Shown piece by piece: positions 14,440 through 15,999 of a DNA stretch of 21,715 bases. Source of the stretch: a virus (taxonomy: Duplodnaviria; Heunggongvirae; Uroviricota; Caudoviricetes); the IMG/VR virus record IMGVR_UViG_3300042402_004854, positions 64,001 through 85,715 of that record; one strand, 5' to 3'. Under the pieces are notes generated by a model. That model was not told the origin of the DNA. It saw only the letters and a list, made by a program, of their open reading frames with translations, and made no database searches. The first letter of the stretch is position 1, and every line of letters starts with the position of its first letter. Made by a program: the position numbers and the translations under genes.

Positions 14440-14939
14440 CTTGGATCCACTCTGTGTTTGAACAAGCCAGTTAAGTAGTCTTCAGGCCAGGTGTGATAAA
14501 AGCCTTTTGACGCCATTTGTCGTGCGGCGGTGTTTAATTTTGAGAGACTCTGAACCAATACCAAAGCATACTTGCCTTGATTCATTATCACACCGTTGAC
14601 ATCTTCTACATCGTCAGGGTGATCTTCCAGTGCAAGTATGTCACGTGACAGCAAAAATTCTGTGTTGGCTGTTTCTATTGCACTGTGAAAACGCTGGTAT
14701 GGCCAATCCTCAGGATCATAAGCATACACAATGACTTCATATCGGCCCATGCCCCAACGTGCTCGGTTCCGTAGATCAAAGTAAGGATCAGCACCAGTCA
14801 ACACTTGCACAGTTTTGTTGAGTCTGGCTTGCCGTGCAAACGGACATGGTGCCCAGCCTCCTAGTGTTGGATGAGGGACTTCTACAAAGTGTTCACTCCA
14901 TTCCAATATGTCTTTTTGAACTTGTTTAGAATCTAACAT
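14436..14939 (-). CDS. DUF1415-like protein
   Basis: W...PCPFA and LALEDHP motifs recall DUF1415 (CPFA ... FHP); translationally coupled on both sides. Confidence 0.5.
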   Translation of the reverse strand: MLDSKQVQKDILEWSEHFVEVPHPTLGGWAPCPFARQARLNKTVQVLTGADPYFDLRNRARWGMGRYEVIVYAYDPEDWPYQRFHSAIETANTEFLLSRDILALEDHPDDVEDVNGVIMNQGKYALVLVQSLSKLNTAARQMASKGFYHTWPEDYLTGLFKHRVDPR

Positions 14940-15115
14940 TAGAAAAATGGTAATTTTGAGTTCTTGGTGGTTTCCAAGTTTTCTTTAATGAGTTCGTTGA
15001 TGTATGAACGTTCATTGTAACTCATGTTCATGATGTCATTGTATGATGCTCCGCCTCGCATGTACCAACTTTGTTTGATACAATTTTGCCTGATAGCATT
15101 GGCCTCTTGTTCCAT
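14939..15115 (-). CDS. gp51: Small gp51-like baseplate hub/tail assembly chaperone domain (58 aa from first ATG; frame open from 15184)
   Basis: Manually translated, below the ORF-track cutoff: MEQEANAIRQNCIKQSWYMRGGASYNDIMNMSYNERSYINELIKENLETTKNSKLPFF. Directly follows gp26; TAATG overlap with the next gene. Confidence 0.7.
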   Translation of the reverse strand: MEQEANAIRQNCIKQSWYMRGGASYNDIMNMSYNERSYINELIKENLETTKNSKLPFF

Positions 15116-15153
15116 TTGATCAATCAGCGCCTGTATTTCATCCGTGGCGGCGG

Positions 15154-15999
15154 TTAAGAGGCGAATTCGAAAAAACTGGCAGAATCAAGCACAATGTTTT
15201 GTTTGTATGCATGACTGCACTCAGGGCATGATAAATCCATGGCCTGAACATCTGTGGATTCTCTCAACTGGATGATATGATCTCTAAGAGAATTAAACAA
15301 GGTACGATCACAATTTTCCAGCCACTCATGAATGAAATCACGGTCAGTGACCAGGGCATCCGGGGTTTTGATGGCTGCAATAGAACGGCTCAATGCGTCA
15401 GTGGTGATTTGAGTTAGAGATATCAAAGTGTCTTGTAACAGTTTCATCTTGTCCGGCTCGGGCATGTCAGTAGAAGAATTCAACAAAACAATTGTACGCT
15501 GCTGTTCAAACTGTTTGATGTTTACTTGATTTTGTGCTTCAAAGTCAAGGGGTTGGAAATAAATTTCTAAATCTCCATTTCTAATAGGTGTTGCAAAATC
15601 AGGTTTGGACAAATTACCCAGCATGGTTCTCAAATCAGCACTGTAATCTTGTTCGTGACTGCAACTGGGGCATTTGCTGGCTACTTCAAGATCATGTCCG
15701 TTGCTGGCAATTCTAATAGAGATCAAAATAGCATTCAAATCAATATTTGGAATGTGCCAGGCATTTTTAATAGCTGGGATACAGCTTTGTACCACTGACA
15801 CCACAGCAGACCCATTGTACAGTGCGTCAGGGGTTCGATACGTGATTTCATCAATGGCAGTCATGGGATAAACTGGAATTTCTTGGTTTGGGGGCATTTC
15901 CAAACTACCTTCGGGCCAAAATTCGCCGTTGCTGGGCAGGCGCAAATAAATGGCAGGTTGTCTAAAAAATTGTTTTAGCGGGTTAGCAGAGTTGGTCAT
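15154..15999 (-). CDS. gp26: Baseplate hub assembly chaperone, T4 gp26-like
   Basis: NPLKQFFRQPAIYLRLPS, PMTAIDEI, IDLNAILISIRIAS.G, two CxxC pairs (CPSC, CPEC); divergent from the tape measure gene. Confidence 0.85.
   Translation of the reverse strand: MTNSANPLKQFFRQPAIYLRLPSNGEFWPEGSLEMPPNQEIPVYPMTAIDEITYRTPDALYNGSAVVSVVQSCIPAIKNAWHIPNIDLNAILISIRIASNGHDLEVASKCPSCSHEQDYSADLRTMLGNLSKPDFATPIRNGDLEIYFQPLDFEAQNQVNIKQFEQQRTIVLLNSSTDMPEPDKMKLLQDTLISLTQITTDALSRSIAAIKTPDALVTDRDFIHEWLENCDRTLFNSLRDHIIQLRESTDVQAMDLSCPECSHAYKQNIVLDSASFFEFAS
15169..15175 (-). other. Putative -1 ribosomal frameshift slippery site T TTT TTC at the end of gp26
   Basis: X XXY YYZ heptamer in the gp26 frame (codons F276-F277), inside the ~30-nt window where the -1 frame leading into the gp51-like ORF is open. 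Confidence 0.55.

Follow-up and report, generated by a model that had tools for sequence, protein, structure and literature searches.

A gp26-type gene of an uncultured freshwater jumbo phage very probably yields a short and a long protein through a -1 slip at a conserved TTTTTTC

Introduction

The G/GT pair of phage lambda and the conserved tail-chaperone -1 frameshift were reportedly described by Levin in 1993 and by Xu, Hendrix and Duda in 2004, 2013 and 2014, and the E/E+E' pair of phage P2 is said to have been described by Christie et al. in 2002. In the lambda model an abundant G and a rare GT act on the tape measure, and the T part recruits the tube protein (PMC5009743). Phage P2, which has a contractile tail, makes a -1 slip on TTTTTTG and obtains products of 91 and 142 amino acids (aa), the longer one through an extension of about 50 aa (PMC3091744). 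According to Atkins et al. 2016 (PMC5009743), the G-T frameshift is a conserved trait of long-tailed phages 'except T4'. Leiman et al. 2010 (PMC3004832) count both gp26 and gp51 of T4 among the chaperones of hub assembly; in the same source, assembly needs gp51 but the particle lacks it, and the presence of gp26 is uncertain. The subject of the present analysis is a gp26-type gene and the -1 reading frame overlapping its 3' end, which lie in a DNA stretch of 21,715 nucleotides (nt) referred to below as the window (positions 64,001 to 85,715 of IMG/VR record IMGVR_UViG_3300042402_004854). The window is the terminal part of an 85.7 kb viral contig from lake-water metagenomes.

A closer precedent exists among T4-like phages. 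Vladimirov et al. 2022 (Virology 566:9-15) is cited in PMC10885494 for T4-like phages with one short and one longer, fused gene and no frameshift, and in PMC12846349 for the TAC-N/TAC-NC pair and for poly-T -1 signals in T4-like TAC-N genes. An earlier reading of the window from its sequence alone (the sequence-only reading) had supposed that a frameshift of this kind was undescribed in T4-like phages; as the study is represented in these two papers, which cite it for exactly that, the supposition was mistaken. A full-text literature search for gp26/gp51 or baseplate hub together with frameshift returned no direct description, Vladimirov et al. 2022 being available through the papers that cite it.

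Comparison of the locus with its relatives indicates that the gene very probably has two products, one short and one long, owing to a -1 slip at a conserved TTTTTTC. The phage is an abundant, uncultured, T4-related freshwater jumbo phage. The sequencing runs listed for the stretch are all lake or freshwater DNA metagenomes, with no RNA run among them; of the cultured phages, RaK2-like jumbo phages come nearest (about 29% identity), and a blastn search of the region against cultured phages gave no match.

Results

A conserved heptamer and an open -1 frame at the end of the gp26-type gene

The gp26-type gene lies at 15154..15999 on the minus strand and encodes 281 aa followed by TAA; its product would be the short form, equivalent to TAC-N. 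The open reading frame (ORF) matches PF12322 T4_baseplate with an E value of 1.5e-13 and 51.4 bits (cut-off 24.5 bits), residues 63-277 aligning with positions 42-218 of the 219 in the profile, and it also matches phrog_150, baseplate hub. The 3' end of the ORF reads ...GCC AGT TTT TTC GAA TTC GCC TCT TAA and contains, four codons before the stop, the slippery heptamer T_TTT_TTC in the X_XXY_YYZ register (15175-15169, minus strand). The -1 frame has a TGA at 15187-15185, is open from 15184 and ends at a TAA at 14941-14939. From the slip point it encodes an extension of 76 aa plus TAA (15169..14939, minus strand), classed as a Gp51_C-like tail by frame reading, conservation and hhalign. Its first ATG, GTG or TTG is the ATG at 15115, 18 codons past the slip point. 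The sequence-only reading had located the heptamer at the end of gp26, the opening of the -1 frame at 15184 and the stretch free of start codons as far as 15115, all of which direct reading confirmed; the frames also agree with the two products that it predicted, of 281 aa and of 277+76 = 353 aa, the junction of the latter falling between ...SASFF and RIRLL.

TTTTTTC occurs 9 times in the window, compared with 9.45 expected. The heptamer alone is thus at chance level, and the signal rests on its conservation in register and on the conserved -1 frame in every relative. The relatives are a set of 98 genomes or contigs with a single PF12322 gene each, the window included. The set holds 88 loci (the window, Phosso, Atu_ph07, RaK2, PA5oct and 83 IMG/VR metagenomic contigs), the further cultured phages 121Q, GAP32, Vibrio phage 2.275.O, XbC2, RsoM2USA and RAS14, the cyanophages P-SSM2, Syn9 and S-PM2, and the vibriophage KVP40; protein identity among them spans about 16% to 68%. 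The control set consists of seven two-gene phages, T4 and six other T4-type phages with separate genes 26 and 51. A related-locus search seeded with T4 gp26 returned close T4 relatives only.

TTTTTTC was found in register in 96 of the 98 single-gene relatives (88/88 loci and 8 further cultured phages), where it lies 1-6 codons before the stop; the second Phe codon is invariably TTC, a codon that accounts for 26% of Phe codons elsewhere in these genes. RsoM2USA and RAS14 carry TTTTTTT in the same register, 2 and 12 codons before the stop, respectively, in T runs of nine (RsoM2USA) and seven (RAS14). The codon preceding Phe-Phe ends in T in all, and the residue it encodes varies (Ser, Asn, Ala, Thr, His, Arg, Tyr, Asp). 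The -1 frame is open for 57-82 codons in 98/98 and encodes a homologous peptide from the slip point onwards. An alignment of gp26 3' ends had been proposed as a check on the slip, and it returned the heptamer (96 TTTTTTC, 2 TTTTTTT) together with the open -1 frame throughout the set. In all seven two-gene phages the heptamer is absent and the -1 frame closed: their gp26 genes end with TTC TTT, as in T4, with TTT ATT, with TTC CTT, or with none of these. The gp26 proteins of several two-gene phages finish in ...FF-x-LL before the stop (EFFELL, EFFKLL; NFFRLF in L117), which resembles the trans-frame FF-R-x-R-LL and the F-K-LL of gp51, as if the first turn of the tail had been retained.

The extension is conserved from its first residues. 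The peptide R.RLL...E.I...WYMRGG...S..ER...LPFF starts at the slip point, and the first ATG of the extension wanders, being found at codon 1, 14, 18, 30 or 36 and, in some contigs, upstream of the slip point; no start codon of the extension is conserved among the 98, and PA5oct has no ATG in it at all. In the ATG-less linker, variation at the three codon positions of the -1 frame amounts to 1.18, 0.89 and 1.65 bits, highest at the third, and this periodicity ends after the extension stop. An AlphaFold2 model of the extension (predicted local distance difference test score, pLDDT, 84) has helices at residues 2-6, 9-38, 43-47 and 51-71. The connecting peptide had been thought to be helical, which the model supports, and because helix 9-38 runs across the first Met (residue 19), it argues against a start at 15115.

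The extension falls in an unannotated 'intergenic' gap in RaK2 (L003, 3349-3714), PA5oct (L004, 3352-3576) and RsoM2USA (L093, after 1483), and it is a 'hypothetical protein' in the records of 121Q, GAP32, XbC2, RAS14, Phosso and the Vibrio phage. No joined coding sequence for the long form is present in the 13 cultured-phage records examined.

Homology of the extension to the tail of gp51

T4 gp26 matches PF12322 with an E value of 8.8e-64 (215.6 bits), and T4 gp51 (249 aa) matches it over residues 1-201 with an E value of 3.9e-52 (177.5 bits). As both belong to PF12322 the two are paralogues, gp51 having about 48 extra residues at its tail. That tail is PF28602 Gp51_C in newer Pfam, according to the precomputed label on gp51 homologues. 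When a profile of the jumbo-phage extensions was compared with 87 gp51 tails by hhalign, the two aligned over 38 columns at their C-termini (Prob 91%, E 9.7e-7); a smaller test of the extension against gp51 tails gave an E value of 9.6e-5. The extensions of the cyanophages and KVP40, whose genomes have one PF12322 gene each, match gp51 tails with an hhalign E value of 5.8e-8 and bridge the jumbo-phage extensions to gp51. These profile comparisons identify the extension as a homologue of the gp51 C-tail of T4. Provided that the -1 slip occurs, the long form in the window would hold a PF12322 body and a Gp51_C-type tail in one polypeptide.

The junction itself was also covered by a hidden Markov model (HMM) of T4-type gp51, which spans it in one piece in P-SSM2 and S-PM2 and crosses it with its C-terminal segment in KVP40. 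For P-SSM2, S-PM2 and KVP40, respectively, the fusion scored 55.7, 55.1 and 47.8 bits versus 19.6, 27.6 and 26.6 bits for the zero frame, a gain of 21-36 bits. On the fusion of the window the same HMM gave an E value of 0.0017 and no gain at the junction, being too distant, and the window is therefore linked to gp51 by profile-profile comparison only.

A maximum-likelihood tree places T4-type gp26 and gp51 side by side beyond a 98/98 branch, apart from all single-gene forms. With a root among the single-gene forms (a root that is not established), the duplication would fall in the T4-type lineage, and the tree points to the two genes of T4 as a lineage-specific duplication.

Two further observations concern the relatives. 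In the T4 record (L009, 3803-4090) a second start is annotated within gene 26 and in its frame (26', the last 95 residues), through which T4 may have a third, shorter member of this protein set. In S-PM2 (L121) a gene for 1167 aa at 151356-154859 overlaps the end of the 'gp51' stub; it is not an obvious tape measure, its product having an ADP-ribosyltransferase-like N-terminus (PF01129, E 1.3e-5), a peptidase-like part and a tail lysozyme (PF18013, E 7e-25). A tape measure identity was not demonstrated for the gene after 'gp51' in S-PM2, P-SSM2 or KVP40.

A stem downstream of the heptamer

In the clade consensus, GCCUCCUG starts 6 nt after the heptamer and can pair with CAGGAGGC, which follows at a distance of about 46 nt. 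The 5' arm of the window is GCCUCUU (15162-15156, minus strand; columns 14-20 of alignment A3); it begins at the same 6-nt distance from the heptamer and overlaps the gp26 stop codon. Its partner, the 3' arm, is AAGAGGC (15108-15102, minus strand), 47 nt past the 5' arm and located by the clade alignment and its synonymous bias. Relative to the consensus, the arms of the window carry a C-G to U-A double change. The sequence-only reading had paired CGCCU (15163-15159) with AGGCG (15132-15128, minus strand); the two are complementary in the window, but that 3' partner is unconserved (A3 columns 44-48), and the conserved partner is the one at 15108-15102.

The stem is paired in 86% of cells, versus 32-58% with the partner slid. 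Codon choice in the 3' arm is biased towards pairing: its Glu codon is GAG in 61 of 67 unique sequences, versus 25% elsewhere, and its Gln codon is CAG in a ratio of 25:1, versus 30% elsewhere. The energy of the duplex is -16.0 kcal/mol, versus -12.4 kcal/mol after synonymous resampling, and it is thus 3.6 kcal/mol more stable (Wilcoxon p 4e-12, a value that overstates independence, as the sequences are related). In four relatives the arm is degraded, and a perfect CAGGAGGC follows 21 nt beyond it. Among 14 cultured relatives, nine have a hairpin that starts 1-13 nt after the heptamer, most at 6-13 nt, with an energy z of -1.7 or lower (Atu_ph07 -6.0, S-PM2 -4.6, P-SSM2 -3.7, KVP40 -3.4, 121Q -3.0), and the remaining five have none after the heptamer. 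An Rfam scan of 14800-15400 returned nothing. The stem probably helps the slip. Its arms resemble the two partners in ribosome binding, the 5' arm being CCUCC-like (compare the 16S rRNA 3' end) and the 3' arm GGAGG-like, a Shine-Dalgarno-like element inside coding sequence (A3 columns 14-21 and 67-74); the likeness may reflect no more than a stem rich in G+C.

Alternative routes to the extension

The alternative that survives best places the slip in transcription, with RNA polymerase adding one U on T6 in some transcripts so that the same 353-aa form results. Known bacterial polymerase slippage sites mostly have at least eight T, beside which T6 is short, and the run is exactly six in 96 of the 98 genomes, with no drift to greater length. 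In addition, a stem at 6-nt spacing with synonymous bias, and hairpins across lineages, are needed by a ribosomal slip and not by a polymerase slip. The conserved element is nevertheless a homopolymer, reaching T7 in RAS14 and T9 in RsoM2USA; the invariant T ahead of the Phe codons extends the run as well, and the same protein would result. A non-ribosomal route may also be favoured in Vladimirov et al. 2022, to judge by its title. A ribosomal slip is considered likely and polymerase slippage unlikely, mainly because the downstream structure at this spacing suits ribosomal frameshifting.

Far less probable is a pair of separate proteins, in which the small ORF is started at the ATG at 15115, or by re-initiation, and gives a free gp51-like peptide of 58 aa. 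The ORF does have its own small gene in GenBank or gene calls of several relatives ('gp51' of S-PM2 and P-SSM2, KVP40.0327, 121Q 595 and XbC2_245), and in Phosso, Atu_ph07 and KVP40 the ATG overlaps or abuts the gp26 stop. The lack of a Shine-Dalgarno sequence before the ATG, which the sequence-only reading had held against such a start, does not discriminate, because most window genes start without one. However, the position of the ATG is unconserved and PA5oct does without it, R.RLL...E.I is conserved upstream of any start with variation of the coding type at third positions, and a start at residue 19 would cut the predicted helix 9-38. The homologous tail in T4 is covalently joined to a gp26-like body, and separate proteins would leave unexplained both the invariance of the heptamer at synonymous sites and its loss in two-gene phages.

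That there is no recoding, the heptamer being the footprint of a Phe-Phe motif and the downstream ORF an unrelated gene, is scarcely credible: Phe-Phe is indeed invariant in the protein alignment, T4 gp26 included, and the number of TTTTTTC in the window is about that expected by chance, but in T4-type phages Phe-Phe is either written TTC TTT or missing, invariance of the synonymous choices is confined to genes followed by the -1 ORF, and the frame relation is -1 in 98/98, with a downstream ORF homologous to the tail of a gp26 paralogue.

The gp26 body and the neighbouring genes

Two Cys pairs, C110/C113 and C258/C261, are invariant in the gp26 body, and the C-terminal CxxC is followed by an aromatic FF; C258, C261, F276 and F277 are invariant in the window, the jumbo phages and T4 gp26. 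An AlphaFold2 model of gp26 (pLDDT 85; predicted template modelling score, pTM, 0.81) is disordered at residues 273-281, the slip region. Foldseek of this model against PDB returned nothing at E <= 0.001, a VIA wide fold search returned generic helical-hairpin matches to residues 150-210 only, and no chaperone family in Pfam or PHROGs matched the ORF at E <= 0.01.

The gene next to gp26 is tape-measure-like (16039..18471, plus strand, 810 aa; phrog_167 and phrog_794, tail length tape measure). The two genes are divergent with a 39-nt spacer, and a gp20-type portal gene follows beyond the tape measure gene. The divergent layout recurs in 79/79 related contigs with upstream flank, and also in RaK2 and PA5oct; the adjacency to a divergent tape measure gene that had been proposed from the sequence is thus borne out by PHROG matches and by these contigs. 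A complex prediction that paired gp26 with residues 1-480 of the tape-measure-like product scored 0.01, which speaks neither for nor against an interaction.

The spacer (16000-16038) contains the sole exact T4 late-promoter consensus of the window, TATAAATA (16008-16015, plus strand), about 24 nt upstream of the tape-measure ATG and within a near-palindrome. With 0.65 matches expected by chance, a single match of TATAAATA is at chance level, and only its position is suggestive. A gp55-like late sigma factor gene is present at 3005-3946 (phrog_12791).

On the other side, the gene after the extension (14436-14941) encodes a 167-aa protein with a match to phrog_28122 and a weak one to DUF6875. 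The extension stop overlaps its start (TAATG), an arrangement also present in the clade consensus, and no Shine-Dalgarno sequence precedes it. As few ribosomes would reach TAATG in the -1 frame, this gene must initiate mostly on its own. Further away, 4821-9130 holds gp47-like (SbcD) and gp46-like (SbcC) recombination nuclease genes with two small ORFs between them (5993-6541 and 6538-7062) that have no family matches, and a radical-SAM-like gene (9123-9989) follows the gp46-like gene.

Discussion

A ribosomal -1 slip that yields a two-form tail or baseplate-hub chaperone is likely the full explanation of the locus. The anatomy of the locus, its conservation, its homologies and the synonymous-site bias are direct observations; that slipping occurs, that it is ribosomal, how often it happens and what the products bind are inferred from them. 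The gp26-type gene would be a gene for a tail or baseplate-hub assembly chaperone that is decoded in two ways. Most ribosomes would terminate at 15154 and release the 281-aa short form. A minority would slip back one base on U_UUU_UUC, where both tRNA-Phe can re-pair, probably aided by the RNA stem that starts 6 nt downstream. The slipped ribosomes would then read the -1 frame and produce the 353-aa long form, that is, the gp26 body with a helical tail of 76 aa, the counterpart of the C-terminal domain of T4 gp51. T4-type phages obtain the same two forms from paralogous genes, the short one from 26 and the long one from 51. If lambda G/GT and P2 E/E+E' are a guide, the body common to both forms would act on the tape measure or the hub, and the rare tail would bring in a further tail component.

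Several points weigh against this explanation. Slipping, in this phage as in its relatives, is read from conservation only. The T6 homopolymer could act through RNA polymerase slippage and give the same protein, and a non-ribosomal route may be meant by the title of Vladimirov et al. 2022. The evidence for the stem is mixed: RNAalifold found no consensus structure in 25 junction sequences, true covariation is minimal, consisting of the single double change in the window, and in the window alone the energy of the stem is no better than that of shuffles (z -0.12). An ATG lies at or near the gp26 stop in Phosso, Atu_ph07, KVP40, S-PM2 and P-SSM2, so that a separately started small protein is possible in those lineages. 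Finally, the gene is divergent from the tape measure gene and not directly upstream of it as in lambda, and no likeness to G-family chaperones was found by sequence (Pfam, PHROGs) or by fold (Foldseek, VIA).

A wider account joins the ribosomal slip to a stem that varies with lineage and that in the window pairs an anti-Shine-Dalgarno-like GCCUCUU with a Shine-Dalgarno-like AAGAGGC, makes the one-gene frameshift ancestral in the T4 superfamily, RaK2-like jumbo phages included, and has T4 genes 26 and 51 hard-wired later by duplication. Taken as a whole, this account is plausible but tentative, with somewhat less than an even chance of being right.

T4 has long been cited as the exception that lacks a two-form G/GT chaperone (PMC5009743), and the gp26/gp51 pair would close this gap; the window, from an uncultured freshwater jumbo phage that is abundant, holds the version with one frameshifted gene. 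As no joined product is present in the 13 cultured-phage records examined, annotation pipelines would miss a conserved and essential protein form. The contrast between one-gene and two-gene phages offers a clean system for the importance of the short:long ratio and for ribosomal versus transcriptional slip.

Comparison with known systems

The resemblance to lambda G/GT lies in a -1 slip near the 3' end of a chaperone gene, in short and long forms that share their N-terminal part and in a gene that adjoins the tape measure gene; the lambda proteins are needed for tail assembly. The heptamer in lambda is a different one, and the tRNA at the shift site is tRNA-Lys in lambda and tRNA-Phe in the window. 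The lambda gene shares the strand of the tape measure gene and immediately precedes it, after the tail tube gene, whereas that of the window is on the opposite strand, the starts being 39 nt apart; its body is also larger (281 aa) and, unlike lambda G, has two Cys pairs. The sequence-only reading had proposed a frameshifted G/GT equivalent. The short and long chaperone pair in that proposal is supported by conservation and by gp51-tail homology. The pair in the window may work like G/GT, with gp26 putatively binding the tape measure as G does, but it is not filed in the G family, because the gene is divergent, no likeness of sequence or fold was found and binding is only predicted.

P2 E/E+E' shares with the window a -1 slip on a U-run heptamer, but its proteins belong to an unrelated family. 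In P2 the tube gene and the tape measure gene flank the pair, and there is no downstream RNA structure (PMC3091744), whereas the clade of the window has one.

The correspondence with T4 is at the level of domains, the short and long forms of the window matching gp26 (208 aa) and gp51 (249 aa) domain for domain. T4 has two divergently transcribed genes and no slippery site where the window has one gene, and the tail in the window is about 25 residues longer than that of T4 gp51. Each of the 'gp51' stubs S-PM2p208, PSSM2_015 and KVP40.0327 is the same -1 ORF after the same heptamer; the KVP40 record notes that its stub resembles 40 aa at the C-terminal end of T4 gp51. The stubs are annotated as free-standing proteins of 55-57 aa with their own ATG, while the extension in the window has 76 aa and an ATG 18 codons past the slip.

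The closest match is the TAC-N/TAC-NC pair of T4-like phages, as it appears in the papers citing Vladimirov et al. 2022. The window shares with it the gene family, the short form and a long form composed of the short form and a downstream part, and the definition given in those papers describes the window, which has a gp26-type gene with a poly-T signal and a gp51-type tail. The locus is thus a well-supported case of a kind already published and not a new one. The reach of the system into RaK2-like jumbo phages and the freshwater clade, the synonymous-site evidence for the stem and the tree in which the two genes of T4 are derived may be unreported; should Vladimirov et al. 2022 deal with none of the jumbo phages, the stem and the polarity, all three would be new to the TAC-N/TAC-NC system.

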